Origin: Pseudodesulfovibrio mercurii | GTDB lineage: Bacteria; Desulfobacterota; Desulfovibrionia; Desulfovibrionales; Desulfovibrionaceae | Assembly (NCBI RefSeq): GCF_000189295.2 | Contig: NC_016803.1 | Span: 1,410,001-1,442,000, forward strand | Reading direction: 5' to 3' | DNA: 32,000 bases | In this document: piece by piece, positions 1 to 16,930 of the stretch | Layout of the letters: every line of letters begins with the position of its first letter | Position numbering within the stretch: the stretch's first letter is position 1 | The notes under the pieces: model-generated | What the model was told of the DNA's origin: nothing | The model's input: the letters and a program-made list of their open reading frames with translations, nothing else | Database searches by the model: none | Translations under genes and position numbers: made by a program

Positions 1-2
1 CC

Positions 3-1247
3 TACACCTTCCACACCCTCGGGGCGGCCAACGGCACGATCCTGACCGATGCGGGCGGCAGCGGCGTGACCCTGCTCAAGAGCAACAACGAGCAGTACGT
101 GGTCCAGGGCACGGCCGTGGATGGCGACGGCAACGGCGAGGTGCTCATCGACACCATCACCATCACCGCGGGCACGAACGCCTCGTTCGTCCTGTCGGCC
201 ATCGACGTGACCGCCGGTGGCTCGTGGCAGCAGACCGGCACCATCCCCGGCACACAGACCATCGTGCCCGCCTCCGGCAACCTGCTGGAAAACGCTTATA
301 GCTCGGACAACGCGGGCATGACCGCCGCCATCGTGGGCTCGGGCGTGGGCCTCTGGGGCACCCTGACGGTGGACTCCGCCACCGGCGACTGGACCTACAC
401 GCCCCGCAGCGACGCCTTCAGCGCCGACACCGCGACGGACGGCCCCACCGTGGAGCAGTTCACCTACCAGGTGACCGACGCCCACGGCCTGACCGAGACC
501 GCCACCCTGTACGTGCCGGTGCACCACAACGCCACGGTCACCGACACCGCCTCCGAAAACGGCGACGTGATGTACGGCAGCGACGGCGACGACACCCTCT
601 CCGGCCTGGGCGGCAACGACTTCCTGTACGGCGAGGCGGGCGACGACACCATCGACGGCGGCGCGGGTCACGACTACCTGAGCGGCGGCGACGGCATCGA
701 CCACCTGTACGGCGGCGACGGCAACGACTACCTGTTCGGCGGCAGCGGCGACGACGTGCTGCACGGCGGTGCGGGCAACGACCACCTGTTCGGCGGCAGC
801 GGCAACGACACCCTCTGGGGCGGCGCGGGCGACGACGTCATCGACGCCGGTTCCGGCGACGACACCGTCTTCATCAGCTCGGGTCACGACACCGTCACCC
901 TGGGCGCGGGCGCGGACACCATCATGGTGGACCCGAGCTACCTGACCACCGGCGAGACGCCCAGCTCCATGACCGTGACCGACTTCAACATCCACGAGGG
1001 CGACGCCATCGACCTGGGCAGCCTGTCCAGCGGCGTGGTGGACGTGACCTCCTCCGGCGACAGCGGCGACCTGGTCCTGACCATCGGCGGCGTGGACCCG
1101 GCCGGGGAGGACATCACCATCACCCTGCAGGGCGTGCTCCCGCCGACCCACGACGTGGTCGATCACCACGTGGACCTGTCTGCCACCGGCGACGACCTGA
1201 ACACCGTGGTCCAGCACATCATCAATTCCGGTGGACACACGTCCTAG
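3..1247 (+). CDS. C-terminal part of a large RTX-type calcium-binding T1SS substrate (adhesin-like); 5' end lies upstream of the window
   Basis: The frame is open from nt 3 (YTFHTLGAANG...), with no stop before the GTG at 66 used by the ORF track. It has a VCBS/cadherin-like unit (TLTVDSATGDWTYTPRSDAF...EQFTYQVTDAHGLTETATLYVPV). It has about ten tandem GGxGxD-type nonapeptides (GSDGDDTLSGLGGNDFLYGEAGDDTIDGGAGHDYLSGGDGIDHLYGGDGNDYLFGGSGDD..., nt ~576-870). The C-terminus is a T1SS target-type domain (MTVTDFNIHEGDAIDLGSL...ITITLQGV). Stop TAG at 1245-1247. Confidence 0.85.
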   Translation, partial: YTFHTLGAANGTILTDAGGSGVTLLKSNNEQYVVQGTAVDGDGNGEVLIDTITITAGTNASFVLSAIDVTAGGSWQQTGTIPGTQTIVPASGNLLENAYSSDNAGMTAAIVGSGVGLWGTLTVDSATGDWTYTPRSDAFSADTATDGPTVEQFTYQVTDAHGLTETATLYVPVHHNATVTDTASENGDVMYGSDGDDTLSGLGGNDFLYGEAGDDTIDGGAGHDYLSGGDGIDHLYGGDGNDYLFGGSGDDVLHGGAGNDHLFGGSGNDTLWGGAGDDVIDAGSGDDTVFISSGHDTVTLGAGADTIMVDPSYLTTGETPSSMTVTDFNIHEGDAIDLGSLSSGVVDVTSSGDSGDLVLTIGGVDPAGEDITITLQGVLPPTHDVVDHHVDLSATGDDLNTVVQHIINSGGHTS

Positions 1248-1260
1248 ACGAACGACAACC

Positions 1261-1286
1261 CCGACCCGGCCCCGAGGCCGGGTCGG
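1261..1286 (+). terminator. GC-rich hairpin between the RTX gene and the next ORF (weak terminator or attenuator)
   Basis: ccgacccggcc / ccga / ggccgggtcgg forms an 11-bp perfect stem. It is followed by gattcccttt, which is only a weak T tract. Confidence 0.3.
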
Positions 1287-1331
1287 GATTCCCTTTGCAC
1301 AGGCGATTCTCTCCTGAACGGAGATGCGGAT

Positions 1332-2147
1332 ATGAGCGACGACATGAATACGAACGAAACCACCATGCTCGGCACCTACGCCCTGGACGGCAACGTTCCG
1401 GTGGACCCGGAGATCGTTCTGGCCAACTGCCGCGACACGGCCATGCTCGGCCGGCTGGTGGACATGTTCGCGGGCGACCCGGACATCCGGTTCTTCCTGC
1501 TCCCGGACGTGGACCGAGCAGCGGTGGACCTCGCGGGTCCCTTCCATTTCATCCGGGACGCCGGGGACTGGGTGCTGGCCAACAGCGACACCCTGCACCA
1601 CGTCCTGTTCGACGACGCGGGTTTCCATCCCGGCGGGCACGAGGGGACCTTCGCCCTCATCAGGCTGGACGACGGCTCCTATGCCCTGGACACCGGTTCC
1701 CACGCGGACGCGGGCGCGGACCTGCCGCACGACGCCCTGCTCGTGGACATGCCGGGGCACGACATCTTCGTGGACGGGCACACCGCCCACCTGGCCGGGC
1801 ACCCGGACGGCCATACGGCGCACGCGGACGCGGACGACGGCCTGTTCATCGCCCCCTCGGTCCTGGGCGACGGCCAGAGCGAGATCGTGGTCACCAACTT
1901 CACCGTGGGCAGCGACCACCTGCACCTGTCCGAGAACCTGTCCGTCAAGGACGTGGTCGTGGACAACGAGCACGACCTGACCTCGGTGATCCTCGGCCAG
2001 AACGACCATGCGGGCGACGACATCGTGGTCAAGCTGCTGGGCGTCTCCCACCCGGACATCCCCGTGCACGACTTCCCCATCGACGCGGACCACTCCACCG
2101 ACGACCTGATCAACCACCTGATCCACTCCGGCAGACACGTGGGCTAG
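1332..2147 (+). CDS. Acidic His/Asp-rich 271-aa protein with a T1SS C-terminal target domain but no RTX nonapeptides (putative second T1SS substrate)
   Basis: ATG at 1332 is preceded by GGAG (acGGAGatgcggatATG). The C-terminal ~90 aa (IVVTNFTVGSDHLHLSENLS...DDIVVKLLGVSHPD...STDDLINHLIHSGRHVG) aligns with the C-terminus of the upstream RTX protein (MTVTDFNIHEGDAIDLGSLS...EDITITLQGVLPPT...TGDDLNTVVQHIINSGGHTS). The overlapping 1295..2308 frame is Arg/Pro/Gly-rich, a typical GC-rich off-frame artefact. Confidence 0.7.
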   Translation: MSDDMNTNETTMLGTYALDGNVPVDPEIVLANCRDTAMLGRLVDMFAGDPDIRFFLLPDVDRAAVDLAGPFHFIRDAGDWVLANSDTLHHVLFDDAGFHPGGHEGTFALIRLDDGSYALDTGSHADAGADLPHDALLVDMPGHDIFVDGHTAHLAGHPDGHTAHADADDGLFIAPSVLGDGQSEIVVTNFTVGSDHLHLSENLSVKDVVVDNEHDLTSVILGQNDHAGDDIVVKLLGVSHPDIPVHDFPIDADHSTDDLINHLIHSGRHVG

Positions 2148-2375
2148 CCCCGGCCGGAAGCGGGACATCCCTCGCACCATCGCGGCATCGCCCCGACAAA
2201 CGCGCAACAGAAGGACCGATACGTCCCCGGCGCAAGGCCCTGCCGGACAAACAGGAACACGCCGCTCAACCCCATGCCCCGGAACGGCGCATCCCCTCGG
2301 ATTCATGAGGAATCAAACAAAATGAACGGACCGGCCCGAAGTTTCCGATTTATAATTGGAGACGACCGTCATTTC

Positions 2376-2404
2376 TTGACCCAAAGTCCATAACCGGCTA
2401 TAAG
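2376..2404 (+). promoter_or_regulatory. Sigma-70-type promoter candidate for tolC
   Basis: TTGACC (2376-2381), a 17-nt spacer (caaagtccataaccggc), then TATAAG (2399-2404). It sits in a locally AT-rich stretch about 45 nt upstream of the tolC ATG. Confidence 0.5.
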
Positions 2405-2448
2405 TTTAGCGGTAAGTTTCTTACACAACCCGGAAATGGGATCTGACG

Positions 2449-3789
2449 ATGAAAAAACTTGTTCTTGCAATTCTTCTCTTTTCGTTGGCGCTGTCCGTGC
2501 CCGCCTTTGCCGATAACGGCACAATGACGCTCAAGGACAGCGTCGTCGCGGCGGTCAAGCAGCACCCGCAGATCAAGGCGCTCCTGAACAACAAGGACGC
2601 CGTCGCCAAGGCCCAGCTGTCCGCTCTGGGCCGCTTCTTCCCGTCCCTAGACCTGACCGGCGAGTACGGCAAGCAGCAGTACAGCAACTCGACCACGCGC
2701 AACAACGGAACGGACAAGCGCTGGCGCACTCCCTCCGAGTTCAAGGCCACGCTGACCCAGCCCATCTTCGACGGCTTCGACCGCTGGCACGACTACAAGC
2801 GTGAAGGCGCCCGTCTGACCTCGGCCGAAGGCCGCCTGGTGGACAACGTCGAGACCGTGGGCCTGGATGCGGTCCGCGCCCACGTGGACGTGGTCCGCCT
2901 GCGCAAGCTGGTCTCCCTGGCCGAAGACAACATCGCCGCCCACCAGCACCTGCTGGATTCCATTTCCGAACGCGTCGAAGGCGGAGCGGGCAACCGCGCC
3001 GACGAGATGCAGGCCAAGGGCCGCGTGGCCCGGGCCGAGACCACCCTGGTGACCTACACCGGCGAGCTGCGCGCCGCCGAGGCCGAATACATCCGCACCG
3101 TGGGCACGGCCCCGGTCTCCCTGGCCGATCCCCAGTACCTGCCCGACTACATTCCCGGCAAGGCCGACAACATCCTGGAACTCGCCCTGGACAACAACCC
3201 CAAGATCGCCGTGTACAAGGCCGAGATCACCGTGGCCGAACAGACCAAGGGCCAGCTCGAATCGACCATGTACCCGACCGTGGACGCCTACCTGTCCAGC
3301 CGCCACACCGACAATCTCGATGGCGTGGACTACTGGATTCAGGACAACAAGGCCATGCTGCGCGCCCGCTGGAACATCTTCAACGGCACCAGCGACTACT
3401 ACGACATCCAGACCGCCGCGGCTCGCATCCGCGAGGCGCAGGACAACCTGCAGGACACCACCGACGACATCATCCGCCAGGTGGCCGCCACCTGGGCCGA
3501 CTACCAGTCCAGCCTGAACCAGATCGAGAAGTACCAGGAAGCCCTGCAATACAGCATCGAATCCCTGGACATGTACCTGATGCAGTTCAACGTGGGCCAG
3601 CGCTCCCTGCTGGACCTTCTGGACGCCACCAACGAGGTCTTCTCCAACCGCGTGCAGCTCGAGACCGCGACCATGAACCGCGACTTCACGGTCTACAAGT
3701 TCCTGGCCCTCGAAGGCTCTCTCATGAAGACCCTCGAGATCGCCCCCTCCACCTACGAGCAGATGCCCACCGAGACCGCCGCCAAGTAA
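2449..3789 (+). CDS. tolC: TolC-family outer membrane channel of the type I secretion system
   Basis: Signal peptide MKKLVLAILLFSLALSVPAFA. The 446-aa length and two-repeat coiled/beta architecture are typical of TolC (…FFPSLDLTGEYGKQQ…, …LLDLLDATNEVFSNRVQLETA…). It lies adjacent to T1SS substrates and converges on the ABC/MFP genes. Confidence 0.9.
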   Translation: MKKLVLAILLFSLALSVPAFADNGTMTLKDSVVAAVKQHPQIKALLNNKDAVAKAQLSALGRFFPSLDLTGEYGKQQYSNSTTRNNGTDKRWRTPSEFKATLTQPIFDGFDRWHDYKREGARLTSAEGRLVDNVETVGLDAVRAHVDVVRLRKLVSLAEDNIAAHQHLLDSISERVEGGAGNRADEMQAKGRVARAETTLVTYTGELRAAEAEYIRTVGTAPVSLADPQYLPDYIPGKADNILELALDNNPKIAVYKAEITVAEQTKGQLESTMYPTVDAYLSSRHTDNLDGVDYWIQDNKAMLRARWNIFNGTSDYYDIQTAAARIREAQDNLQDTTDDIIRQVAATWADYQSSLNQIEKYQEALQYSIESLDMYLMQFNVGQRSLLDLLDATNEVFSNRVQLETATMNRDFTVYKFLALEGSLMKTLEIAPSTYEQMPTETAAK

Positions 3790-3813
3790 ACGGCGCACAC
3801 AATCGACTTCCCA

Positions 3814-3848
3814 GGGACGCGGCCACAAGGCCGCGTCCCTCTTTTTTT
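3814..3848 (+). terminator. Rho-independent terminator of tolC
   Basis: GGGACGCGGCC / ACAA / GGCCGCGTCCC forms an 11-bp perfect stem (3814-3839) followed by TCTTTTTTT. Confidence 0.8.
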
Positions 3849-3874
3849 CCCCATTAAGGCGCATGAACAGCAGC

Positions 3875-3995
3875 GGCTCGGTAGAGCGGGCCATCTGCAC
3901 ATTTTTCGGGGACCCGTCTGATCCTCACGTAGGAAGACTACGCTGCGGTCAGCCGGGCCCCCGAAAAATGCACAGCTGACCCACTCTACCGAGCC
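3875..3995 (+). repeat. Hairpin-forming repeat unit 1 (37-nt inverted arms at 3875-3911 and 3959-3995)
   Basis: Arm 3875-3911 is ggctcggtagagcgggccatctgcacatttttcgggg. The reverse complement of 3959-3995 is ggctcggtagagtgggtcagctgtgcatttttcgggg. They are identical at 32 of 37 positions, and four of the five differences are transitions. Confidence 0.75.
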
Positions 3996-4055
3996 TATCC
4001 TTAGCGCGGAGAGCCGCTGTTCGGGGCTGCGCCCCGAAGGCGCTCCAAAGAAGGG

Positions 4056-4108
4056 AAAAAAGCAAGGGCCTCGTCCGACACAACGTCGGACGAGGCCCTT
4101 GCTTTATT
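4056..4108. terminator. Bidirectional terminator-like hairpin in the convergent spacer
   Basis: A 19-bp perfect stem, agcaagggcctcgtccgac (4061-4079) / acaac / gtcggacgaggcccttgct (4085-4103). It is preceded by an A run (4056-4060, continuing into the first stem base) and followed by ttatt. On the minus strand the stem is followed by TTTTT, which suits termination of the minus-strand T1SS operon. Confidence 0.6.
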
Positions 4109-4271
4109 AGGACGCACCACAAAAACCTAGCAGCGCCTCGGGTGCGCAGCACCCGACAGCGGCTCTCTCCCCCGCGCTCGCACTAGGCTTTGATTCGCCC
4201 CGTCCTGGGGCTCACCCCTTCGGGGCGTTGCGGAAAGACCGCAACGTCCAAATCCGCTGTCCTGCGGATTT

Positions 4272-4436
4272 GTCGAGAGTGGGTCAGCTGTGCATTTTCT
4301 TCCGGCCGGGGCAACCGCAGCGTGCATCAGCTCTTAGGCCGAGCTTGCTCGGTCTTAGAGATGACGACAGCAGCGATAGCCGTCTACGTGAGGATTGGCG
4401 CGGCCGGAAAAATTGTGCAGATGGCCCGCTATCGGA
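4272..4436 (-). repeat. Repeat unit 2: inverted copy of unit 1 with an enlarged loop (arms 4272-4311 and 4402-4436)
   Basis: 4277-4298 (gagtgggtcagctgtgcatttt) is identical to the reverse complement of 3965-3986. The reverse complement of 4414-4430 (agcgggccatctgcaca) is identical to 3885-3901. The loop segment 4384-4395 is the exact reverse complement of 3921-3932 (atcctcacgtag). Confidence 0.75.
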
Positions 4437-4519
4437 AGCCGCTTACCGTCCCCAAAAACAAGCCCCGGCGTGGACGCCGGGGCTTTGCAACAACCAGATG
4501 GATGGAGAGAGGGTGTCAC

Positions 4520-6622
4520 TTAATCCTTATCACCCAATAATCTTTCTCCTGTCGGAGTATTGATGACATCAGAAAGGGCTTCTACCACGGCGGGATCGAA
4601 GCGACCGGTCTCGCCGGACAGGATTTCCAGGGCCTGCTCCGGCCGCTGGGCGCTGCGGTAGGAGCGCGGCCGGATCATGGCGCAGAACACGTTCAGGACC
4701 GAGAGGATGCGGGCCAGGAGGATGATGTCGCCGCCCTTGAGCTTCTTGGGATAGCCCGAGCCGTCCAGGCGCTCGTTCATCTGGTAGATGGCGGTCAGCA
4801 CGCCCTCGGCGATGTCGATGTCCTTGAGGATGCGGTAGGCGTATTCCACGTGCCCTTCCATGACGGCCATCTCCTCGGGGGTGAGCTTGCCCGGCTTGGT
4901 CAGGATCTCGTTGGGCACGAACATCTTGCCGATCTGGGACAGGTTGGCGGCGGTCTCGATCTCGGCGATGTCCATTTCGGACAGGTGCATGACCTTGGCC
5001 ACCTCCACGGACAGCCCGGCCAGGAGCTTGGTATGGCCGCCCAGGTACGGGTCGGCGGCCTCGATGGTCGAGCCGAGGGCCTCCATGGCGTTCTTGATCA
5101 GCCGCTTGTTCTTCTCCTGGGCGGCCACGAACTCGGTCACGTCGCGATAGACCTCGACGATGCCCTGACAGACGCCGTCCGTGCCGCAGTACGGGGACTT
5201 GGAAACCTGGAACTGGTGGCGGCGGGAGCGGATGTAGATGGGCTCGCTGATGGTCATCTTGCGGTTCTCGCGGACCACCACCTCGTCGATGGACTCCAGC
5301 CGCTTGGCCGTGTCGAAACCGAACACGGCGGCGGTGTCCATGCCGAGGAGTTCCTCCCTGGGCCGTCCTGCGGCCTCGGCAAAGGCGTCGTTGACGTAGG
5401 TGAACTTGCCGAGCGGGTCCTTGAGCACGATGAATTCGTCGATGTTGGCGTTGATGGAGTCGATGAACAGCTTCTGCTCCTCGATCCGCGTGGCCAGGGC
5501 GCGGAACTGCTCGGCGATGCGCTGGCTCTGCACCCCGGTCAGAATCCACCAGGCCAGCCCGGCGATGAGCAGGGCTGTCAGGATGCCCAGCCCGGCCACG
5601 GTGTAGACCGTGCGCCGGAACTCGACCACGGGCCGCATGGCTTGGTCGTAGTCGATCTCCTGGACCAGCCACCAGGCCGGGCCCGGAATGCGCACGCCCA
5701 GGGAATAGACCCGGGCGTCGCCGTCCTCGATGCTCGGACGCAGGCCGAAGGGGATGTGCCCGTTCTCGCCGATCTCGATGGGGAAGGGCACGTCCAGGAA
5801 GCCGTCGGCGGTCCAGGGCGCGACCTCACGGTAGCCCGCCCCGCTCTTCTGCATGAGCCGGGTCTTCTCGCCCTTGGCGGCCAGGGGCGAGTTGGACAGC
5901 AGTTCGGTGATCTTGCCGGAAATCTGGCGGGTCATCATGAGCACGCCAACGGCCTTCTGGCCGGGGGTCTCGTCGGTGCCGCCCACGGCGTCGGGCGGGA
6001 AGACGGGCACGAAGATGTCCATCTCCAGCCCCTGGGCGGTCTTGCGCAGGGTGGAATACTGCGGCCCGTTGTCCCGGATGGCGGCCATGGCCAGGCCGGT
6101 CTGCTCCTGATTCATGGGCGGCAGGTACCCGTCCGTGGCGATGTAGGCCTCGCCCTTGCGGCTGAGGATGCGGGCGTTGAGGAAACCCGCGTAGGTGGAG
6201 AACTCGCGGAGCATGTTCTCCATCATGGGCAGCTGTTCGGCCAAGGTCGTCCCCTCCTCGCCTCCGGCCGCGCCGTCGGCATGCAGCCGCCCGAAGAGGT
6301 TGGACAGGTCGCCGGCAAAGGAGTCCACCTCCGAGGCGTAAAGCCGGAAGAGGTCGGACTTGATCAGCCGGTCGCCCTGGTGGGACAGGTTCTCGAGCCA
6401 GGAGCCGATGACCTCGGTGCGCCCCTGGGTCAGGAGCTGGAACCGCTTCTGCTGGTTCTCCAGCACCGCGGCCTCCTTGTCCCGCACCGTCCTGGCGGCG
6501 AGCAGGACAATGCCCGCCGAGATGACCAGCACGAAGGCCAGGACCACGCCGATCTTGACGCCCTGCCCGGCCCCGCCGATTGACTTGGGGACCGCTGCGG
6601 TCTTGGTAAGATGTTCAGCCAT
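4520..6622 (-). CDS. Membrane receptor: TM, ~300-aa periplasmic domain, TM, PAS-like domain, then a degenerate HD-GYP domain (LapD-analogue candidate)
   Basis: ATG at 6622 is preceded by GGAGA (ccagatGGAGAagcgacATG). TM1 is GVKIGVVLAFVLVISAGIVLLAA and TM2 is VYTVAGLGILTALLIAGLAWWILTGV. A PAS-like segment follows (IDEFIVLKDPLGKFTYVNDAFAEAAGRPREELLGMD). The C-terminal HD-GYP family domain keeps ERLDGSGYP, but HDxGK reads SQIGK and HHE reads QMNE. Confidence 0.85.
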   Translation of the reverse strand: MAEHLTKTAAVPKSIGGAGQGVKIGVVLAFVLVISAGIVLLAARTVRDKEAAVLENQQKRFQLLTQGRTEVIGSWLENLSHQGDRLIKSDLFRLYASEVDSFAGDLSNLFGRLHADGAAGGEEGTTLAEQLPMMENMLREFSTYAGFLNARILSRKGEAYIATDGYLPPMNQEQTGLAMAAIRDNGPQYSTLRKTAQGLEMDIFVPVFPPDAVGGTDETPGQKAVGVLMMTRQISGKITELLSNSPLAAKGEKTRLMQKSGAGYREVAPWTADGFLDVPFPIEIGENGHIPFGLRPSIEDGDARVYSLGVRIPGPAWWLVQEIDYDQAMRPVVEFRRTVYTVAGLGILTALLIAGLAWWILTGVQSQRIAEQFRALATRIEEQKLFIDSINANIDEFIVLKDPLGKFTYVNDAFAEAAGRPREELLGMDTAAVFGFDTAKRLESIDEVVVRENRKMTISEPIYIRSRRHQFQVSKSPYCGTDGVCQGIVEVYRDVTEFVAAQEKNKRLIKNAMEALGSTIEAADPYLGGHTKLLAGLSVEVAKVMHLSEMDIAEIETAANLSQIGKMFVPNEILTKPGKLTPEEMAVMEGHVEYAYRILKDIDIAEGVLTAIYQMNERLDGSGYPKKLKGGDIILLARILSVLNVFCAMIRPRSYRSAQRPEQALEILSGETGRFDPAVVEALSDVINTPTGERLLGDKD

Positions 6623-6667
6623 GTCGCTTCTCCATCTGGTTTGTGGCCACGCCCTTGACGGCGGGCC

Positions 6668-7465
6668 TTATTGCTTCGCCTTTTCGTAGGTGGTCCGCTT
6701 CTGCGGGGCCACGTGCATCCAGCGGTACTTCTCGTTGATCGAGTACTGCGGGATGTAATGCTTGTACTTCGTATGGGACAGGACCATGTCGGTCTGATTG
6801 TCGAGAATGTAGATGTCGTCCGTGGCGTAAACCGCCAGCACGGCGTGGCCGATGCCCCGGATGGCGTCCTTGACGGCCACGATGCGCAGCTGGTCGTCGG
6901 TGAAGCCAAGTTCCTGAAGGGCGTAGAACTTGGCGATGGAATAGTCCTCGCAGTCCCCCGACTTCTTGAGAAATTCCCAGGGCGTCTCCCAGTAGTCGCT
7001 GACGCCCCAATTGGCCATGTCCAAACGGTACGGCCACTTGTTGAAGAACCTGGTCACGGCCCGGAGGCGGTCCATCTCGGACTTGTCGCCGACCTGTGCC
7101 TTGAGGGTGTTCCAGGCCTTCTTGGAGGGATGGTCGTTGGTCCGGTCGTCCTTGAAGTACCCCTTCCAGGCCTTCATCTTGTCGAGCACGCGCGTCCACT
7201 TGGGCAGTTTCTGGATCTTGCCCTTGAACTCCAGGGTCCCGAACAGCTGGCGCTTGTCGGACTTACCCGTCGTGTGATTGGCCGGCGCGGGTTGGACCGC
7301 CGAGGGCACGGCGGTCGCGGGCCGGACCGCTTCGGGCCGGGCCGTGGCCGGGTCCGGCGTCGCCTGGGCCGCAACGGCTCTCGGGGACAGGACCAGGACC
7401 ACGGCCAGACAGGCCGCGCAGAGCGCAACCATTGCCGCCGAGTATGTCCCCCGCATCGGCCTCAT
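6668..7465 (-). CDS. lapG: Periplasmic transglutaminase-like cysteine protease (BTLCP / LapG family)
   Basis: It has a signal peptide (MRPMRGTYSAAMVALCAACLAVVLVLSPRAVAA) and a Pro/Ala-rich linker. The Cys-His-Asp core is typical of the family (SGDCEDYSIAKFYAL...IGHAVLAVYATDDIYILDNQ). GAGG lies 5 nt upstream of the ATG. The gene sits between the MFP gene and the receptor gene. Confidence 0.85.
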   Translation of the reverse strand: MRPMRGTYSAAMVALCAACLAVVLVLSPRAVAAQATPDPATARPEAVRPATAVPSAVQPAPANHTTGKSDKRQLFGTLEFKGKIQKLPKWTRVLDKMKAWKGYFKDDRTNDHPSKKAWNTLKAQVGDKSEMDRLRAVTRFFNKWPYRLDMANWGVSDYWETPWEFLKKSGDCEDYSIAKFYALQELGFTDDQLRIVAVKDAIRGIGHAVLAVYATDDIYILDNQTDMVLSHTKYKHYIPQYSINEKYRWMHVAPQKRTTYEKAKQ

Positions 7466-7472
7466 CCACGCC

Positions 7473-8801
7473 TCATCGTTCCCTGAGCGCGTTCTGTTTT
7501 GCCTTGAGCAGGGGCTTGAGCAGGTAGTCCAGGACCGACTTGCGGCCGGTCAGGATGTCCACGCTCGCGGTCATGCCCGGAATGATGGGCAGTTGCTGTC
7601 CCCGGTAGGTGATGGCGTTTTCCTTGGTGCGCACCTTGACCAGATAGTGGCTCTCGCCCTTCTCGTCCTCGATGGTGTCGGCCGAGATGTTCTCGACGAT
7701 GCCGTCCAGGCCGCCGTAGATGGAGAAGTCGTAGGCCGTGATCTTGACCTTGGCCTTCTGGCCGGGGTGCAGGAAGGCGATGTCCGAGGGTTTGACCTCG
7801 GCCTCGACCAGCAGGGTGTCGTCCAGGGGCACGACCTCCATGATGGATTCGCCGGGCCGGATGACGCCGCCGATGGTGTTGACCATGATGTGCTTGACCA
7901 CGCCGCGCACGGGCGAGCGCACGTCGGTGCGGGTCACGCGGTCGCCGCCGGAACTCAGGTTCTCCTGGATGGAGTTGAGTTCCTGCCTGCGGGAGTTGAT
8001 CTCCTCCAGCGCGTCGGCCCGGTACTCGGCCCGGGCCTGGTCGATGCGCCCCTTGGCCTCCTTGGCGGCCCGCTGCACGCGGGGGATGCCCAGGGTCAGG
8101 GCCTGCATGTCGCCGCGCAGCTGAACCACGGTCTGCTCCAGGCGCAGGTAGTCGAGTTCGGAGTGGATGTGCTTCTCCACCAACGGCTTGGCGATGTTGC
8201 GCTGCTTCTCGGCCACGTCCAGGCTCTGGCGGAGCTGGTTGCGGCGGGCGACCATCTCGCTGACCTCCTGCTGGCGCTGCTGGTACTGGTCCTCGAGCAG
8301 GCCGATGTCGATGTTCAGCTTGTTGCGCTGGGCCACGAAGATGCGCCGCTGGTCCTCGACCAGCTGGGGCGCCTTCTTGACCACGTCGGGCGGGAAGTCC
8401 GGTTCGGCCGCGCCGTCCGCCTCGGCCTGGAGCCGGGCGATGGCCGCCTGGTGCTCCAGGGCCTTGCTCTGGGCGTCGCGGTAGTAACTGGCGGCCTGTT
8501 CGTTGGACAGGCGGCAGAGAATGTCGCCCTTCTCCACGGTCTGGCCCTCCTGGACGAACAGCTCGTTCATGATGCCGCCCTCCAGGTTCTGGATTTCCTG
8601 AATGCGCTGGGACGGGATGACCCGACCGAAGCCACGCGTGCGCTCGTCGAGCATGGCCAGCTTGGCCCAGACGATGAAGATGACGATCATCAGCAGGATG
8701 GCCGTGGACATGAGGTAGGCAAGCCGGTGGCCCTTGCCGTACATGGCCTGGTCCACCTCGCTCATGAACAGGAGCGTTTCTCTATCGAATTTCTTGCTCA
8801 T
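7473..8801 (-). CDS. HlyD-family type I secretion membrane fusion protein
   Basis: The start is placed at the ATG at 8801 (MSKKFDRETLLFMSEVDQAMYG...), 7 nt after the ABC gene stop, with GAGG overlapping that stop. The longer track ORF (to 8876) would overlap the ABC gene. It has a single N-terminal TM (AYLMSTAILLMIVIFIVWA), a long coiled-coil middle and a beta-barrel C-terminus typical of HlyD. Confidence 0.9.
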   Translation of the reverse strand: MSKKFDRETLLFMSEVDQAMYGKGHRLAYLMSTAILLMIVIFIVWAKLAMLDERTRGFGRVIPSQRIQEIQNLEGGIMNELFVQEGQTVEKGDILCRLSNEQAASYYRDAQSKALEHQAAIARLQAEADGAAEPDFPPDVVKKAPQLVEDQRRIFVAQRNKLNIDIGLLEDQYQQRQQEVSEMVARRNQLRQSLDVAEKQRNIAKPLVEKHIHSELDYLRLEQTVVQLRGDMQALTLGIPRVQRAAKEAKGRIDQARAEYRADALEEINSRRQELNSIQENLSSGGDRVTRTDVRSPVRGVVKHIMVNTIGGVIRPGESIMEVVPLDDTLLVEAEVKPSDIAFLHPGQKAKVKITAYDFSIYGGLDGIVENISADTIEDEKGESHYLVKVRTKENAITYRGQQLPIIPGMTASVDILTGRKSVLDYLLKPLLKAKQNALRER

Positions 8802-8808
8802 CGCGACC

Positions 8809-11403
8809 TCACAGGGAAACCTTGATTTGACCGGTCCTGAGGCCGTCGAGCACGGCCTTCTTGGGCCCGTCCACAACTATCCTGCCCCGGTCCATGATGA
8901 CCAGCCGGTCCACGAGATCGAGCATGGAATGGCGGTGGGTGATGACGATGAGCGTCTTGTCCTCGATATATTTCCGCAGCCGCTCCTTGAGGCGGAATTC
9001 CGACTGGTTGTCCATGTTGCTCGACGGCTCGTCCATGATCAGGATTTCCGGGTCGGGCAGGATGGCGCGGGCGATGGTCACGGCCTGGCGCTGGCCGCCG
9101 GACAGGGAGGTGCCGCGCTCGCCGACCATCAGGCCGAAGCCCGCCGGGTGGTCGCGAACGAAGTCGTTGACCCCGGCGATCTCGGCGGCCGCGTTGATGG
9201 ACTGGTCGTCCGCCTCGGGCAGGCCGAAGGCGATGTTGTCCTTGAGGGTGCCGTAGAAGAGCAGGCTGTCCTGGGAGATGTAGCCCACCTTGCGGCGCAG
9301 GTCGGCCACGTCCATCTGGCGCAGGTCGATGTCGCCCACCTGGACCGAGCCCTTCACGGGCTGGTAGAGGCCCACGCAGAGCTTGCCCAGCGTGGTCTTG
9401 CCCGCGCCGGTGCGGCCCACGATGCCGACCTTCTCGCCCGGCTTGAGCTTGAGGTTGATGTCGTGGAGCACGGCCTTGTCCGTGCCGGGATAGCTGAAGG
9501 ACACGTCGGTCAGGGTCACGGACGGCTCGATGACGCCGTAGTGGAAGGCCTCCTTGTCGTCGGGCCGCTCGGACGGCATCTCCATGAGCATGTCCAGGGC
9601 GTTCAGGGCCATGCGGGACTGCTGGAAACGGGAGAGCAGCCCGGCCACGGCGGACAGCGGGGCCATGGACCGGCCGGACAGGATGTTGCAGGCGATGAGC
9701 CCGCCCACGGTCAGTTCGCCCTTGGAGATGAGGTACACGCCGGTGATGACCACGGCCACGGAGACCATCTGGGTGACGAAGACCGAGAAGGTGATGGACA
9801 CGTTGGCCATGGTCTTGGCGTGGCTGTTGGAGTGGGCGGACAGGCCGACCACGTTCTCCCAGCGGGCCTGGATGCGGCCCTCGGCCATGGAGGTCTTGAT
9901 GGTCTCGAGCCCCTGGACGATCTCGAACAGGAGCGCGTACTTCTGGGTGGATTCCTTGTAGTGGTTCTCGATGATCCGCTGGAAGGGAATCTGCATGAAC
10001 ACGCCCACCAGGATGACCAGGGGCACGGCCACGAATATGGGATAGGCGATGGGTCCGCCGATGAAGTAGATGACGCAGATGAACAGGACCAGGAACGGCA
10101 GGTCGATGAGCGCCACCAGGGAGGACGAACCGAAGAACTCGCGCAGGGACTCGAACTCGCGGATGTTGTTGGCCACCGCGCCCGCCGACTCCGGCATGTA
10201 GTCGAGCCGGGCGGACATGAGGTGGTTCATGATCTTGGAGCCGATGAGCACGTCGGCGTTGCGCCCGGCCACGTCCACGAAATAGGAGCGCAGGTTCTTG
10301 AGCAGGAAGTCGAACAGGTAGGCGATGGCGATGCCGATGGCCAGGGCCCAGAGGGTGTCGGTGGCGTTGTTGGGGATGACCCGGTCGTACACGTTCATGA
10401 CGAAAAGCGGCGAGGCGATGATGATGATGTTGGTCATGATCGAGGCGCCGATGACGTGCTTGTAGATGGGCCAGAACTTGGCGATGACGCCCCAGAACCA
10501 GCGCTTGGTCTTGAGCAGCCGGAGCTCGCTGGCCCGCTTGTCCAGCTTGGACTTGCGGTGACAGAAGATGGCGTACCCGGTGTACTCCTCCTCGAGCTTG
10601 GACAGCGGCATCTCGGTCTCGTCCATGCCGTGGCCCGGCACGATGACCCGGGCCGTGCTGCCGGTGGTGTCCAGAAGCACGCAGGCGTTGCCCCCGCGCA
10701 GGAGCAGGATGCACGGCATGACCAGCCGGGTGATGGACCGCAGCTTCTCGCGGTACACGGTCTTGGCGGTGATGCCGATGCGCTCGGCCGAACGGACGAT
10801 GGCCGCGGCGGTGATGACCCCCTCCTGCTGGGGGATGCCCGCCTTGAGGGTGGCCGAGGAGACCGGCTTGCCGAGCAGACGGCTGATGATGGACAGGCAG
10901 ATGACCAGGGGCGGCTGAAAATCGATGTCCTTGGGGGTCAACCGCTCGTCGGTCTCCACCCGGGCGGGCCGCTCCATGCCCGGCAACGGCGGCATGCCCG
11001 GCGGCATCTGCCCCTTGACCGGCTGGCCCGGCTGCGGCCGACCAGCCTGCGGAGCGCCCGGTTGCGCCTTGCCGGACGCGGCATCCCCTTCCGGGACGGG
11101 CGCGGACGCCGGTGCGGCCTGGGTCGCGGACGCGGCGGCCGACTGGGGTGCGGCCCCAGGTACGGCCTGAGACGCCGACTGAGGCGCGGGTCCGGCCGGT
11201 TTGGCCGTGCCGCCCGGCATGGGGCCGGTGTCCATGCGCGTGGTCCCGGCAACGGGCTTGCCGTCGTCGCCCCTGACGGGGACGGGACGGGACGCGCCGG
11301 GGGCGGGCCTGGGCCCGGTCTGATCGGGCGAGGCTTCGGACCCGGTCCTGCGGTCCGGGGCGGGCTTCGGGGCTGCTGGTGACGCTTTCTTCTCGGGTGG
11401 CAT
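8809..11403 (-). CDS. T1SS ABC transporter (LssB/LapB type) with an N-terminal C39-like domain and an unusual ~140-aa Pro/Ala/Gly-rich N-terminal extension
   Basis: Walker A GRTGAGKTT, signature LSGGQRQ, Walker B ILIMDEPSS, and a six-TM exporter domain. The C39-like region is PLVICLSIISRLLGKPVSSATLKAGIP...PCILLLRGGNACVLLD. The start is uncertain: ATG at 11403 (MPPEKKASP...) is preferred, the track uses TTG at 11463, and the ATG at 10977 (MERPARVETDE) would remove the low-complexity extension. Confidence 0.85.
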   Translation of the reverse strand: MPPEKKASPAAPKPAPDRRTGSEASPDQTGPRPAPGASRPVPVRGDDGKPVAGTTRMDTGPMPGGTAKPAGPAPQSASQAVPGAAPQSAAASATQAAPASAPVPEGDAASGKAQPGAPQAGRPQPGQPVKGQMPPGMPPLPGMERPARVETDERLTPKDIDFQPPLVICLSIISRLLGKPVSSATLKAGIPQQEGVITAAAIVRSAERIGITAKTVYREKLRSITRLVMPCILLLRGGNACVLLDTTGSTARVIVPGHGMDETEMPLSKLEEEYTGYAIFCHRKSKLDKRASELRLLKTKRWFWGVIAKFWPIYKHVIGASIMTNIIIIASPLFVMNVYDRVIPNNATDTLWALAIGIAIAYLFDFLLKNLRSYFVDVAGRNADVLIGSKIMNHLMSARLDYMPESAGAVANNIREFESLREFFGSSSLVALIDLPFLVLFICVIYFIGGPIAYPIFVAVPLVILVGVFMQIPFQRIIENHYKESTQKYALLFEIVQGLETIKTSMAEGRIQARWENVVGLSAHSNSHAKTMANVSITFSVFVTQMVSVAVVITGVYLISKGELTVGGLIACNILSGRSMAPLSAVAGLLSRFQQSRMALNALDMLMEMPSERPDDKEAFHYGVIEPSVTLTDVSFSYPGTDKAVLHDINLKLKPGEKVGIVGRTGAGKTTLGKLCVGLYQPVKGSVQVGDIDLRQMDVADLRRKVGYISQDSLLFYGTLKDNIAFGLPEADDQSINAAAEIAGVNDFVRDHPAGFGLMVGERGTSLSGGQRQAVTIARAILPDPEILIMDEPSSNMDNQSEFRLKERLRKYIEDKTLIVITHRHSMLDLVDRLVIMDRGRIVVDGPKKAVLDGLRTGQIKVSL

Positions 11404-11484
11404 ACGGTTCACTTGGCTGAGGATTGCCTGTGCGCGGACCGCGAAAACGGGTCCGCCGTCCAATACTTACAGTAGTAGTGTCAC

Positions 11485-11593: not shown

Positions 11594-12589
11594 TCAGGCG
11601 GAGACCGAAACCCCGATCTTGCCCAGGGCACGGCCCGACTCCCAGTAGCGGTGGGCCGAGGCGATGTCGCGGAAGTCGAAGCGGCGCTCGTCCAGAAGCA
11701 CGGCCAGCTCGTCCGCGTCGGTGAGCGCGGCCACCTGGTCGAGGATCTCGCCGATCCGTTCGCGCCCCCTGCCGGTGATCAGCGGCAGGAGCATGAAGAC
11801 CACGTGCAGGGACAGGCTCTTGGCGTGCAGCGGGCCGAGATCGTGGGAGGAGCGGGTGTTGGTGGAGACCACCCGGCCGCCCATGCGGGCCGCCTTGAAG
11901 GAGGCGTCCAGGACGGGGCCGCCCACGGTGTCGAAGACCGCGTCGAACCCCCGGCCCGCCGTGTGTTCGTCCACGTAGTCGTCCACGCTCGCGGTCGTGT
12001 AGTCGATGGGCGTGCCGCCCAGGGCCTCGACCACGGAGGCCTTGTCCGGTGAGGAGACCGTGGCGAAGACCTCGGCCCCGGCGTGGACCCCGAGCTGCAC
12101 GGCCAGGTGCCCCACGCCCCCGGCCCCGCCCTGGACCAGGAGCCGTTCGCCCGTCTTGAGCCCGGCCTTGTCGAACAGGGCCAGCCAGGCGGTCACGGCC
12201 ACCAGGGGCATGGCCCCGGCGTCGGTCAGGTCCATGCACCGGGGTGCGCGGGCCAGCAGGCGCTCGTCCCCGACCATGAACTCGGCCAGAGCGCCGGGCA
12301 ATCCCCGGACACCGCCGGGGCAGCCGAACACGCGGTCGCCCAGGGCCAGACGGGTCACGCCGGGCCCCACACCCTCCACGGTGCCGGACACGTCCATGCC
12401 CAGCACGGCGGGCAGGTCGGGCGAGAAGGCCAGGGCCGAGCCCATGGTGGCGATCTTGTTGTCGATGGGGTTGAGGCTCGACCCGGCCACCCGGACCAGG
12501 ACCTGGCCCGGACCGGGTTCGGGCACGGCTATGTCGGACTCGGCAAAGGCGTATTCCCTGCCGTATTCTTCAATCAGCATGGCTTTCAT
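11594..12589 (-). CDS. Zinc-type alcohol dehydrogenase / NADPH:quinone oxidoreductase family (MDR superfamily)
   Basis: The start is taken as the ATG at 12589 (MKAMLIEEYGREY...), preceded by GGAGGA (agtGGAGGAagcatccATG). It has a GroES-like N-terminal domain and the Rossmann motif VQGGAGGVGHLAVQLG. The rest of the 1033-aa track ORF is antisense read-through of ygiQ. Confidence 0.85.
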   Translation of the reverse strand: MKAMLIEEYGREYAFAESDIAVPEPGPGQVLVRVAGSSLNPIDNKIATMGSALAFSPDLPAVLGMDVSGTVEGVGPGVTRLALGDRVFGCPGGVRGLPGALAEFMVGDERLLARAPRCMDLTDAGAMPLVAVTAWLALFDKAGLKTGERLLVQGGAGGVGHLAVQLGVHAGAEVFATVSSPDKASVVEALGGTPIDYTTASVDDYVDEHTAGRGFDAVFDTVGGPVLDASFKAARMGGRVVSTNTRSSHDLGPLHAKSLSLHVVFMLLPLITGRGRERIGEILDQVAALTDADELAVLLDERRFDFRDIASAHRYWESGRALGKIGVSVSA

Positions 12590-12709
12590 GGATGCTTCCT
12601 CCACTTTTTCCATCCTACCCGCATCGCGGCGGGCTGTACAGGGGAGGCGAGGCGGCAACCCGCGCGAAAAGGAGTGGACCAACGCGCGCGCCTGGGTCAT
12701 CATCTCCGG

Positions 12710-14521
12710 ATGGCACGCACACAACACGCACAAACCCTCCGCCAGCCCCCGGTCCTGCCCATGTCCCGCGAGGAGATGGACGCCCTGGGCTGGGAGGAAC
12801 TGGACATTCTCCTGGTCTCGGGCGACGCCTACGTGGACCACCCCTCCTTCGGCGCCCCCCTGCTCGGGCGCTGGCTGGTCCGCCACGGCTTCCGCACGGG
12901 CATCTGCGCCCAGCCCGCCTGGGACCGGCCCGACGACCTCCTGCGCATGGGCCGCCCGAGGCTCTTCGCGGGCGTCACCGCCGGGTCCCTGGACTCCATG
13001 CTGGCCCACTACACGGCCTTCCGCAAGAAGCGGTCCGACGACGCCTACACCCCCGGCGGCCAGGCGGGCGCGCGGCCCAACCGGGCGTGCATCGCCTACA
13101 CCAACGCGGTGCAGCGGGCCTTCCCCGGCCTGCCCGTGATCCTGGGCGGCATCGAGGCCTCGCTCCGGCGCGTGTCCCACTACGATTTCTGGTCCGACTC
13201 GGTGCGCAAGTCCGTGCTGCTCGATTCCAAGGCCACGGCTATCGCCTACGGCATGGCCGAAGACTCCATCGCCATTGTGGCGAAGACCATCGCGACCATC
13301 CTGGACGAGGTCGGCGAGGTGGACCTGCGCGCCCTCAGGCCCCAGCTGGTCGGGCTGCCGGGCCTGGCCGTGGCCGGGACCCGCGACGACATCCCGGAGG
13401 ACGCCGAGGTCCTGGAGCTGCCCTCTCACGAGGCGATCCTGGCAGACCCCAAGGCGCTCATCGAGGCCACCCGGCTCATGGAGAAGCAGGTCCACCAGAA
13501 CAAGGCCATGGCCGTGCAGGAGACCGACGGACGGCTGGTCCTGGTCTCCCCGCCCGGCCCCCTGCTCGACACGGCAGGCCTGGACGAACTGGCCGGGCTG
13601 CCCTTCACCCGGCTGCCCCACCCGTCCTACCGCCAGCGCATCCCGGCGGCGGAAATGATCCGGACGAGCGTGACCACCCACCGGGGCTGCTCGGGCGGCT
13701 GCTCCTTCTGCACCCTGGCCCTGCACCAGGGGCGGACCATCCGCTCGCGGAGCAAGGCGTCCATCCTGAAGGAGGTCCGGGCCATCACCGAGGTCAAAGG
13801 ATGGACCGGGTCCATCTCGGACGTGGGCGGCCCCAGCGCGAACATGTGGGGTGCACACTGCGCCTCGGACCAGTCCGCCTGCGAGCGGGCCAGTTGCCTG
13901 ACCCCGCGCATCTGCAAGCACTACCGCGTGGCCCAGCGGGACTTCGTCTCCCTGCTCCGGTCCGTGGCCGACGTGAACTCCGTGGAGCACGTGCGCGTGG
14001 CCTCGGGCTGGCGCATCGACCTGGCCGTGACCGACATGCAGGCCCTGACGACCATGATCCGCGAATTTGTGGGCGGCCAGGCCAAGGTCGCGCCCGAGCA
14101 CCAGGTGGACCACGTCCTCAAGCTCATGCGCAAGCCCGGCTTCGAGACCTTCGAGACCTTCCTGGACCTGTTCGACAAGGAATCGAAAAAGGCGGGCAAG
14201 AAGCAGTACGTCATCCCCTACCTCATGTCCGCCTTCCCCGGCTGCACCGAGGAGGACATGCGCAGCCTGCGCCACTGGCTCGATGCGCGCGGCTGGAAGC
14301 CCGAGCAGGTCCAGTGCTTCATCCCCCTGCCCGGCACGGCCGCCGCGGCCATGTTCCACGCCGAGTGCGACATGCAGGGCAACCCCATCCACGTGGCCAA
14401 GACCGACGCGGAACGGCTGCGCCAGCACGCCATCCTCATGCCCGATACCGGACGGCCGCCGGGCAACGCGCCGCACCGGGACCGGGGACGGGGCCGGAGC
14501 CGGAAGCACCCCCGGAAATGA
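12710..14521 (+). CDS. ygiQ: YgiQ-family (UPF0313) radical SAM protein
   Basis: It has the conserved N-terminus ...LPMSREEMDALGWEELDILLVSGDAYVDHPSFG, a CxxxCxxC-type motif (HRGCSGGCSFCTL) and an Arg-rich C-terminal tail. The start is ATG 12710 (MARTQHAQTL...) or ATG 12761 (MSREEM...). Confidence 0.85.
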   Translation: MARTQHAQTLRQPPVLPMSREEMDALGWEELDILLVSGDAYVDHPSFGAPLLGRWLVRHGFRTGICAQPAWDRPDDLLRMGRPRLFAGVTAGSLDSMLAHYTAFRKKRSDDAYTPGGQAGARPNRACIAYTNAVQRAFPGLPVILGGIEASLRRVSHYDFWSDSVRKSVLLDSKATAIAYGMAEDSIAIVAKTIATILDEVGEVDLRALRPQLVGLPGLAVAGTRDDIPEDAEVLELPSHEAILADPKALIEATRLMEKQVHQNKAMAVQETDGRLVLVSPPGPLLDTAGLDELAGLPFTRLPHPSYRQRIPAAEMIRTSVTTHRGCSGGCSFCTLALHQGRTIRSRSKASILKEVRAITEVKGWTGSISDVGGPSANMWGAHCASDQSACERASCLTPRICKHYRVAQRDFVSLLRSVADVNSVEHVRVASGWRIDLAVTDMQALTTMIREFVGGQAKVAPEHQVDHVLKLMRKPGFETFETFLDLFDKESKKAGKKQYVIPYLMSAFPGCTEEDMRSLRHWLDARGWKPEQVQCFIPLPGTAAAAMFHAECDMQGNPIHVAKTDAERLRQHAILMPDTGRPPGNAPHRDRGRGRSRKHPRK

Positions 14522-14673
14522 CCCGGCACGGACACCGAAACGACACCGGCGGGGTCCGCAATATTGCAGATATGTATATCCCCGACGCCTGAATAACATA
14601 TTTGTAATATTTTTCTTCCCTTTTCGTATGCGGGACCGCCCGGAAAGCCAAGCCCCGCGCCATATTTCGCGCA

Positions 14674-14688
14674 TGGCATCGTGTTTGC
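14674..14688 (+). promoter_or_regulatory. Sigma-54 (-24/-12) promoter candidate directly upstream of nifA
   Basis: TGGCAT-cgtgt-TTGC (14674-14688) is a good match to TGGCAC-N5-TTGC. The -12 GC lies only about 12 nt before the annotated ATG at 14701. Confidence 0.45.
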
Positions 14689-14700
14689 TATTCATCAGCC

Positions 14701-16284: not shown

Positions 16285-16317
16285 ATTTTCGGCATACCTA
16301 CCTCCACCCCATTCAAG

Positions 16318-16358
16318 ATGCCCCTCGCCGGACGGTCCGGCGGGGGGCATCGGGTTTT
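16318..16358 (+). terminator. Terminator-like hairpin after nifA
   Basis: atgcccctcgccggacggtccggcggggggcat is a long GC stem (16318-16350) followed by cgggTTTTc. Confidence 0.5.
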
Positions 16359-16425
16359 CGGGGCTGCGCGCTTGCCTGCGGGCCCGGAGGACTTATCTTT
16401 TGGGGAGACGGAACGATCCGGCCCC

Positions 16426-16680
16426 ATGGCCGGAAAGGAGGTTGCCAAGACCTATGTTACCGCCGCACGGTTCGACAGGAACCGCCTGAAAAACGATGAA
16501 GCGCTCCGCGAAAAGGCGGAGGGCGTGCAGCGCCATCTCGAGGAGATCGCGCTGGACGTCGGCCTGGACCCGTCCAGGAACGTCATCCGCGCCGAAGTGG
16601 GCGACGAGGTCCGCATCGGCATCAGCGAGGACATGGACGAGTACTACCGCGAAGCGCCCGGAAGCTGGCGTTTCTACTAG
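16426..16680 (+). CDS. Hypothetical 84-aa acidic protein
   Basis: ATG at 16426 (MAGKEVAKTYVTAARFDRNRLKNDEALREKAEGVQRHLEEIALDVG...). Composition is protein-like and I recognise no family. The part of the track ORF upstream of this ATG overlaps the nifA terminator hairpin. The Shine-Dalgarno is weak. Confidence 0.45.
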   Translation: MAGKEVAKTYVTAARFDRNRLKNDEALREKAEGVQRHLEEIALDVGLDPSRNVIRAEVGDEVRIGISEDMDEYYREAPGSWRFY

Positions 16681-16704
16681 ACGCCCGCCCGAACGCCATG
16701 AAAA

Positions 16705-16736: not shown

Positions 16737-16756
16737 GTTATCAAAGTTCATTCCGG

Positions 16757-16911: not shown

Positions 16912-16930
16912 TGAGGTCGGAACGAATCGG

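Follow-up and report, generated by a model that had tools for sequence, protein, structure and literature searches.

The closest described counterpart of the locus analyzed here is the Dvh biofilm-adhesin system of Desulfovibrio vulgaris Hildenborough, which consists of DvhA (DVU1012), DvhE (DVU1013), DvhB (DVU1017), DvhC (DVU1018), DvhG (DVU1019) and DvhD (DVU1020). Genomes of sulfate-reducing bacteria (SRB) that encode LapG-like proteases and adhesins linked to type I secretion systems (T1SS), without LapD, were reported by Karbelkar et al. (2024, PNAS), and DVU1020 was proposed as the LapD analogue (PMC10990149). Reconstitution in Pseudomonas fluorescens demonstrated that DvhA has a retention module, that this module is cleaved by DvhG and that DvhD regulates DvhG according to the levels of cyclic diguanosine monophosphate (c-di-GMP) (PMC10990149). 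Font et al. (2026, Nat Commun) found that DvhG cuts at a di-alanine in a calcium-dependent manner, with the retention domain contributing to substrate recognition, and that the periplasmic domain of DvhD adopts a dCache fold (PMC13090378). DvhD's HD-GYP domain binds c-di-GMP at two sites, a canonical one and one that bridges the dimer, metal-free and with no hydrolysis of the ligand, and binding splays the stalk helices of the protein (PMC13090378). Here, a window of 32,000 nucleotides (nt) from Pseudodesulfovibrio mercurii (contig NC_016803.1, positions 1,410,001 to 1,442,000; high-GC, ~65%) was analyzed, and its part from ~1 to 11007 very probably represents the P. mercurii ortholog of the Dvh system (DvhA/B/C/E/G/D). 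Shown from the sequence are the content and order of the genes, the domain layout of their products, the residues for catalysis and ligand binding, and the orthology of the receptor to DvhD.

An earlier note on this DNA, made by reading the sequence, had pointed to a LapG/LapD-like pair with a non-canonical receptor in D. vulgaris and regarded the class as possibly partly described. This was correct, the pair being DvhG/DvhD (PMC10990149; PMC13090378); the class is indeed described, and to a larger extent than the note supposed, with the reconstitution in 2024, the structures in 2026 and the P. mercurii orthologs already listed. The P. mercurii DvhD ortholog (WP_014321916.1) is part of the gene-neighborhood analysis of 78 DvhD homologs (PMC13090378, supplement), and since both the DvhD and the DvhG orthologs of P. 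mercurii appear in this supplement, the exact locus already has a catalogue entry as a DvhDG system. With publications from 2024 and 2026 the system is a known one, and as these include P. mercurii among the orthologs, the present analysis makes no claim to new biology.

Gene content and organization of the locus

Four consecutive genes on the minus strand, from 4520 to ~11000, encode an ATP-binding cassette (ABC) exporter, a membrane fusion protein (MFP), a protease and, as the last gene, a receptor. This operon and the domains that the earlier note had assigned to its products were confirmed by Pfam and NCBIfam searches together with hydrophobicity analysis. Convergent on it, the plus strand carries the 3' end of an RTX adhesin gene, an open reading frame (ORF) of 271 amino acids (aa) and a gene for TolC. 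The note had described the same converging adhesin and TolC genes as well as a second substrate; the second substrate also stands, but as the ORF at 1332-2147 and not as the overlapping one at 1295-2308. The features of the locus are, in window coordinates:

1..1247, plus strand: 3' end of the RTX adhesin gene (DvhA-like T1SS substrate), last 414 codons, frame open from the window edge
1260..1287, plus strand: terminator-like GC-rich hairpin just past the adhesin stop, 12-bp stem with 11 GC pairs
1332..2147, plus strand: putative second T1SS substrate, 271 aa, 76% identical to its counterpart at L001:11255-12085 (L001 being the Pseudodesulfovibrio karagichevae locus described below)
2449..3789, plus strand: TolC-family outer-membrane channel (DvhE/LapE-like; OEP, TIGR01844)
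3813-3840: terminator-like hairpin past TolC
4460..4485, minus strand: terminator-like hairpin closing the minus-strand operon, stem of 11 bp including 9 GC pairs, T-rich tail
4520..6622, minus strand: receptor, DvhD ortholog, 700 aa, with a first transmembrane (TM) segment, a dCache-like domain, a second TM segment, a PAS domain and a degenerate HD-GYP domain
4586..5068, minus strand: degenerate HD-GYP domain of the receptor, aa 519-679, predicted c-di-GMP module (HD_5, E 2.3e-41)
5126..5458, minus strand: PAS domain in the cytoplasmic part of the receptor, aa 389-499 (PAS_4, E 2.7e-13; PAS, E 1.1e-6)
5636..6448, minus strand: periplasmic dCache-like domain of the receptor, aa ~59-329 (match to 9RC2, E 4.4e-56)
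6668..7465, minus strand: DvhG/LapG-like BTLCP cysteine protease, 265 aa (Peptidase_C93, E 3.5e-20)
7473..8801, minus strand: HlyD-family T1SS adaptor (DvhC/LapC-like; TIGR01843), ORF open to 8876
8809..11007, minus strand: LssB/LapB-type ABC exporter (DvhB-like; TIGR03375), ORF open to 11463

Identical gene order was found in a syntenic locus of P. karagichevae (L001), with identities of 89% for the receptor, 90% for aa 71-265 of the protease, 94% for the MFP, 96% for the ABC exporter and 90% for TolC. The hairpin closing the minus-strand operon (4460..4485) lies 35 nt past the receptor stop, in a region that is conserved in P. karagichevae; all hairpins named terminator-like come from a consensus scan only. 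An Rfam scan of the window returned zero matches, and a scan for sigma-70 promoters was uninformative, with one site found and 1.4 expected.

The T1SS set is of the LssB/LapB type, consisting of an LssB exporter with a C39-like domain, a HlyD adaptor and TolC. TIGR03375 (type_I_sec_LssB) recognized the ABC exporter with 933.6 bits (cutoff 693.1), the match covering residues 185-878 when counted from the start of the ORF 8809-11463. Its N-terminal C39-like domain matched Peptidase_C39 in Pfam (E 4e-7) and, as best PDB match, 3B79 (E 2.5e-15), a peptidase-like domain from an ABC protein for toxin secretion in Vibrio; in an alignment judged by eye the catalytic cysteine appears to be missing, which would make the domain non-catalytic. 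The MFP scored 418.8 bits on TIGR01843 (cutoff 208.65); within the ORF 7473-8876 its likely start is the ATG at 8801, which lies past the exporter stop in the context TGAGGTCGCGATG, and the P. karagichevae ortholog, 94% identical, has 442 aa. TolC, with an N-terminal hydrophobic signal, was identified by OEP (Pfam, E 4.3e-53) and TIGR01844 (252.1 bits, cutoff 225.15).

The start of the exporter, and with it that of the operon, had to be placed within a longer open frame. The region 11008-11463 comprises ~150 codons open upstream of the likely start, which are of low complexity and P/A/Q-rich and are open in P. karagichevae too. The GC content at third codon positions (GC3) is 0.82 in the first 486 nt of the ORF as compared to 0.96 in the core, and substitutions relative to P. 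karagichevae are spread evenly across the codon positions in this 5' part. An AAGGGG motif directly precedes the ATG at 11007. The reading as an 884-aa exporter with a P/A/Q-rich N-terminal extension was rejected based on GC3 and the substitution pattern, the extension probably being an open non-coding stretch. As these first ~150 codons are probably non-coding, the operon more likely begins near 11007.

The receptor and the protease

The receptor is 100% identical to an NCBI protein of P. mercurii and is a DvhD ortholog. Pfam recognized PAS_4 (aa 394-499) and the HD-GYP-type domain HD_5 (aa 519-679). Two stretches, aa 24-42 and aa 342-360, are strongly hydrophobic; with these as TM segments on either side, the ~300 aa between them must be periplasmic. 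Orthology to DvhD is carried by comparison to three PDB entries titled "HD domain/sensory box protein", which are structures of D. vulgaris Hildenborough DvhD (DVU1020) (PMC13090378): aa 379-698 of the receptor matched 9RC0 (PAS/HD-GYP) with an E-value of 4.7e-89, the receptor matched 9RBZ (HD-GYP) with 6.4e-57, and the full receptor matched 9RC2 (periplasmic domain) with 2.8e-55. Identity to DvhD is ~47% across the PAS/HD-GYP part. About 100 full-length homologs were retrieved, of which those carrying a name fall into Pseudodesulfovibrio, Salidesulfovibrio, Maridesulfovibrio, Oleidesulfovibrio, Desulfovibrio and unclassified Desulfovibrionaceae/Deltaproteobacteria only. LapD_MoxY_N, HAMP, GGDEF and EAL domains were not detected in the receptor (Pfam, E<=0.01), nor was any LapD-type match obtained in NCBIfam. 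An assignment of the receptor as LapD was ruled out, as none of the domains of LapD is present, and the proposal of the earlier note that a PAS and degenerate HD-GYP protein occupies the LapD position was supported by the match to the DvhD structures.

The residues of the HD-GYP domain were compared with those of DvhD, for which the roles in c-di-GMP binding were taken from the published structures (PMC13090378); in this domain, the P. mercurii numbering equals that of DvhD plus 3, and conservation was counted in an alignment of 96 full-length receptor homologs. In place of the HD dyad the receptor has S562-Q563 and in place of the HH pair M615-N616, with the GYP motif intact at 623-625. DvhD has exactly the same configuration, namely SQ for HD, MN for HH and an intact GYP. 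The serine, the glutamine, the three residues of GYP and R653 are invariant (96/96), the methionine is found in 94 and the asparagine in 89 of the 96 homologs. Since the metal-ligand positions HD and HH are replaced by SQ and MN, the receptor is predicted to lack catalytic activity, in line with the finding for DvhD. For the canonical c-di-GMP site, the DvhD residues Y523, L577, K582, Y621, M646, R650, Y652 and E668 were compared, and seven of the eight contacts are kept in P. mercurii, as Y526, L580, Y624, M649, R653, Y655 and E671, and across the 96 homologs these seven positions are conserved as well. Of the bridging-site residues compared (P567, K520 and R569 in DvhD), only the proline is kept, as P570 (P in 84/96).

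The protease was assigned to Peptidase_C93/BTLCP (PF06035) with 72.8 bits at a cutoff of 27. It carries the motifs GDCEDY (C172), GHAVL (H207) and ILDN (D222), of which D171-C172-E173 forms the calcium motif. The catalytic motifs align residue for residue with those of P. fluorescens LapG (4U65_E, E 1.5e-23) and likewise with Legionella LapG (4FGO, E 2e-17). The N-terminus consists of a hydrophobic signal followed by a P/A-rich linker of ~40-70 aa, and the linker of the P. karagichevae protease is 25 aa shorter than that of P. mercurii. For the P. mercurii DvhG ortholog WP_148266956.1, a SignalP prediction with a signal peptide score of 0.998 and cleavage between positions 22 and 23 (AVAA|Q) is available (PMC13090378, supplement). 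The protease differs here from DvhG, which has a TM anchor, a ~180-aa linker and its catalytic cysteine at position 317, whereas the P. mercurii protease has a Sec signal peptide, a short linker and the cysteine at position 172; most DvhG orthologs carry signal peptides (PMC13090378).

The adhesin, the small substrate and neighboring genes

The 3' end of the adhesin gene encodes RTX nonapeptide repeats (HemolysinCabind, E 7.9e-37), a Big_9/cadherin-like domain and a C-terminal secretion region; neither a von Willebrand nor a serralysin domain was seen in the portion within the window, i.e., the last 414 codons. This portion is 62% identical to the C-terminus of the P. karagichevae adhesin (L001), which is complete with 2899 aa and contains cadherin-like, Big_9 and RTX repeats. 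When the adhesin C-terminus of P. mercurii was used as query, a contig scan recovered P. karagichevae and 78 unrelated RTX loci, and a protein search recovered only RTX proteins of at most 725 aa.

The first ~100 aa of the P. karagichevae adhesin form a beta-rich module with spaced glycines, after which comes YLFAF...ADLE-TAAG, in which TAAG corresponds to T103-A104-A105-G106. The scissile di-alanine of DvhA is located at 106-107 (PMC10990149). A search with the N-terminal 160 aa of the P. karagichevae adhesin identified three metagenomic fragments at contig edges that have the same module and in which the ETAA core is invariant, reading ETAAG or ETAAD. Three giant adhesins of 2346-3254 aa, which were found via the 271-aa protein, read ELETAAG, IQTAADG and ELETAAEG. 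According to these sequences, a retention-like module with a cleavage motif is present in this lineage, and the adhesin of P. mercurii would be expected to share them.

The 271-aa protein encoded at 1332-2147 on the plus strand is His-rich in its middle and 76% identical to its P. karagichevae counterpart. Searches of Pfam and NCBIfam gave no match for this protein, and RTX repeats and a retention module are absent from it. Its C-terminal ~100 aa can be aligned, end to end, with the secretion region at the C-terminus of the neighboring adhesin (33% identity, E 9e-7). For its N-terminal domain, a matching module was found close to the C-terminus in giant adhesins. A HMMER scan of 1.84 billion cluster representatives yielded 25 matches, which comprise about eight stand-alone proteins of ~255-295 aa (50%-identity clusters), shorter fragments and C-terminal regions of giant adhesins. 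The protein, which combines an adhesin-type domain with a secretion-signal region, is probably a small co-secreted T1SS substrate, a "mini-substrate". The overlapping 337-aa ORF at 1295-2308 yielded no match in Pfam; as a candidate for the second substrate it was set aside because the conserved counterpart in P. karagichevae matches the frame of 1332-2147.

The spacer between the convergent ends of the TolC and receptor genes contains, at 3872-4443, a nested imperfect palindrome of ~570 nt. Its minimum free energy is -371.7 kcal/mol as compared to -233.6 +/- 7.5 kcal/mol for shuffled sequences (z = -18), and no Rfam match was obtained for it. P. karagichevae lacks the palindrome at this site. 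A unit of ~170 nt from it recurs with 70-81% identity in seven metagenome contigs, of which three come from a single sample; outside this unit, the contigs are unrelated to the window. Its absence from the P. karagichevae site together with the recurrence of the unit in unrelated contigs points to a dispersed element resembling repetitive extragenic palindromic (REP) sequences or miniature inverted-repeat transposable elements (MITE).

Further along the window, a nif cluster is located at 14701-29578 (14.7 to 29.6 kb), and the interval separating it from the Dvh locus holds a gene for a YgiQ-type radical SAM protein and one for a zinc-type dehydrogenase. The latter is contained in a 1033-aa minus-strand ORF at 11594-14695, of which only the C-terminal ~300 aa match zinc-type alcohol dehydrogenase/quinone reductase, and the ORF in its full length is probably a high-GC artefact. 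The remaining genes of this part are:

12083-14521, plus strand: Radical_SAM_N (YgiQ-type) protein (E 1e-107)
14701-16284, plus strand: NifA-like GAF-sigma54 activator
17338-19068 and 22226-23401, minus strand: radical-SAM/NifB-NifX-like genes
18678-20252 and 20038-21432, minus strand: NifN/NifE-like genes
23486-24862 and 24878-26533, minus strand: NifK/NifD-like genes
26540-26914 and 26914-27267, minus strand: two PII genes
27333-28160, minus strand: NifH
28400-29578, plus strand: homocitrate synthase

Proposed mechanism, alternatives and comparison with described systems

By analogy to D. vulgaris, we propose that the mechanism is the same in P. mercurii and acts on its own adhesin, which would carry the cleavage site. 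The LssB-type exporter, the HlyD adaptor and TolC would thread the giant RTX adhesin through the envelope until the N-terminal retention domain plugs TolC, so that the adhesin would be displayed on the cell surface. The calcium-dependent BTLCP protease with its Cys-His-Asp triad, presumably exported by means of its signal peptide, would cut the adhesin at [T/A/P]AAG just past the retention domain, leading to adhesin release and biofilm dispersal. The 700-aa receptor would bind c-di-GMP via its catalytically dead HD-GYP domain, whereupon the stalk helices would splay, and this change would pass through the PAS domain, cross the membrane and reach the dCache domain on the periplasmic side; this domain would then restrain the protease (inside-out signaling). 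Consequently, the adhesin would stay on the surface at high c-di-GMP and would be released at low c-di-GMP.

Several observations weigh against this assignment. The N-terminus of the P. mercurii adhesin is outside the window, hence the retention module and the cleavage site are seen only in a close relative. Binding of c-di-GMP, non-hydrolysis, cleavage at the di-alanine and regulation of DvhG are taken from the D. vulgaris proteins, and even there the way in which DvhD restrains DvhG is still called unknown (PMC13090378). The protease scored 101.8 bits on the NCBIfam LapG equivalog NF045674 at a cut-off of 320, and judged from its sequence it is a LapG-like BTLCP, not the gammaproteobacterial LapG equivalog. 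The eighth residue of the canonical site, the phosphate contact K582 of DvhD, is replaced by M585, a position occupied by M in 63 and by K in 26 of the 96 homologs. In the bridging site, K520 of DvhD corresponds to A523 (A in 83/96) and R569 to E572 (E in 75/96). As these polar residues differ, the stoichiometry or affinity of c-di-GMP binding may differ from that of DvhD; the bridging site may rest on shape and the proline only, or may be specific to a lineage.

As an alternative, the receptor might be an active HD-GYP phosphodiesterase that lowers c-di-GMP, or cyclic GMP-AMP (cGAMP), locally and affects the adhesin only indirectly, which would be in line with the strong HD_5 score and with the resemblance to the cGAMP phosphodiesterase 5Z7C of Vibrio cholerae (E 2e-28) and to PmGH 4MCW (E 1e-20). 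However, the metal ligands are replaced by SQ and MN, which are invariant or nearly so across the 96 homologs, and for DvhD, in which these positions are substituted alike, metal-free binding of c-di-GMP and no hydrolysis were found (PMC13090378), which makes such an activity very improbable. Instead, the receptor might mainly be an outside-in or multi-input sensor that responds to a dCache ligand, a PAS cue or 3'3'-cGAMP, with c-di-GMP not being the sole or main controller of the protease. dCache and PAS domains are typically ligand-sensing, and the change of K582 to M585 as well as the bridging-site changes occur here and in most Pseudodesulfovibrio-type homologs. Nevertheless, no ligand density was observed in the dCache pocket of DvhD (PMC13090378), the PAS domain has no known ligand, the guanine-specificity residue E671 is kept in the P. 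mercurii receptor, and upon reconstitution the function of DvhD was driven by the c-di-GMP level (PMC10990149); we therefore consider it unlikely that other inputs dominate.

With regard to the adhesin, the protease-receptor pair might not act on its neighbor at all, the substrate being encoded elsewhere or the adhesin being simply secreted and not retained. The location of the adhesin N-terminus beyond the window edge leaves room for this explanation, and the D. vulgaris protease DvhG cleaves, besides DvhA, the unlinked adhesin DVU1545 (PMC13090378). Such a separation is nonetheless hardly to be expected, as in P. karagichevae, where the gene order is conserved, the adhesin of the syntenic locus carries TAAG at 103-106 together with the retention-like module, and as module and motif are kept in the three metagenomic fragments and the three giant adhesins. 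An ortholog of the Dvh system acting on the adhesin encoded beside it thus accounts best for the locus.

It is conceivable, though rather unlikely, that the Pseudodesulfovibrio system is measurably unlike the D. vulgaris prototype, with a captured soluble protease, altered nucleotide binding and a mini-substrate acting as partner or competitor. Given that the protease is soluble, having a signal peptide and a short linker, the dCache domain would need to capture it physically, as LapD captures LapG. If such differences hold, M585 and the lost polar residues of the bridging site might alter the 3:2 stoichiometry of c-di-GMP binding or favor 3'3'-cGAMP, and the conserved 271-aa mini-substrate could be an undescribed co-secreted partner or competitor of the adhesin.

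A Lap-like adhesin switch with a receptor composed of dCache, PAS and dead HD-GYP domains was here recovered from sequence reading alone. The result is only mildly new, consisting of variation at the level of orthologs and of side observations, but the ortholog-level differences, i.e., the soluble protease, M585, the bridging-site residues and the small substrate gene, could guide comparative experiments. P. mercurii is a mercury-methylating sulfate reducer; the locus is now annotated in this organism, and biofilm control could be relevant there.

Among described proteins and systems, the catalytic HD-GYP phosphodiesterases, such as PmGH (4MCW), V-cGAP3 of V. cholerae (5Z7C) and PA4781 (4R8Z), share the HD-GYP fold and the GYP motif with the receptor but have intact HD and HH metal ligands, whereas the receptor has SQ and MN. 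The canonical Lap system in P. fluorescens and other Gammaproteobacteria (LapA, LapBCE, LapG and LapD) shares the logic of a giant RTX adhesin anchored by a T1SS, and it likewise comprises a periplasmic calcium-dependent BTLCP that cuts at a di-alanine and is controlled inside-out by a dead c-di-GMP receptor in the inner membrane. In P. mercurii, however, the receptor is unrelated to LapD and has dCache, PAS and HD-GYP domains instead, and the interaction between the LapD tryptophan and the LapG pocket is absent from the Dvh type (PMC13090378). As compared to the Dvh system of D. vulgaris, P. mercurii has an additional putative substrate gene of 271 aa between those for the adhesin and TolC, a D. 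vulgaris counterpart of which was not looked for. The two systems have the following in common: the P. karagichevae adhesin resembles DvhA in its retention-like N-terminus with TAAG at nearly the same position, both proteases are BTLCPs that have the C-H-D triad and the calcium motif D-C-E, the T1SS components are of the same types, the receptor has the same TM-dCache-TM-PAS-HD-GYP layout, and the Dvh system of D. vulgaris has the same gene set and arrangement as the P. mercurii locus.

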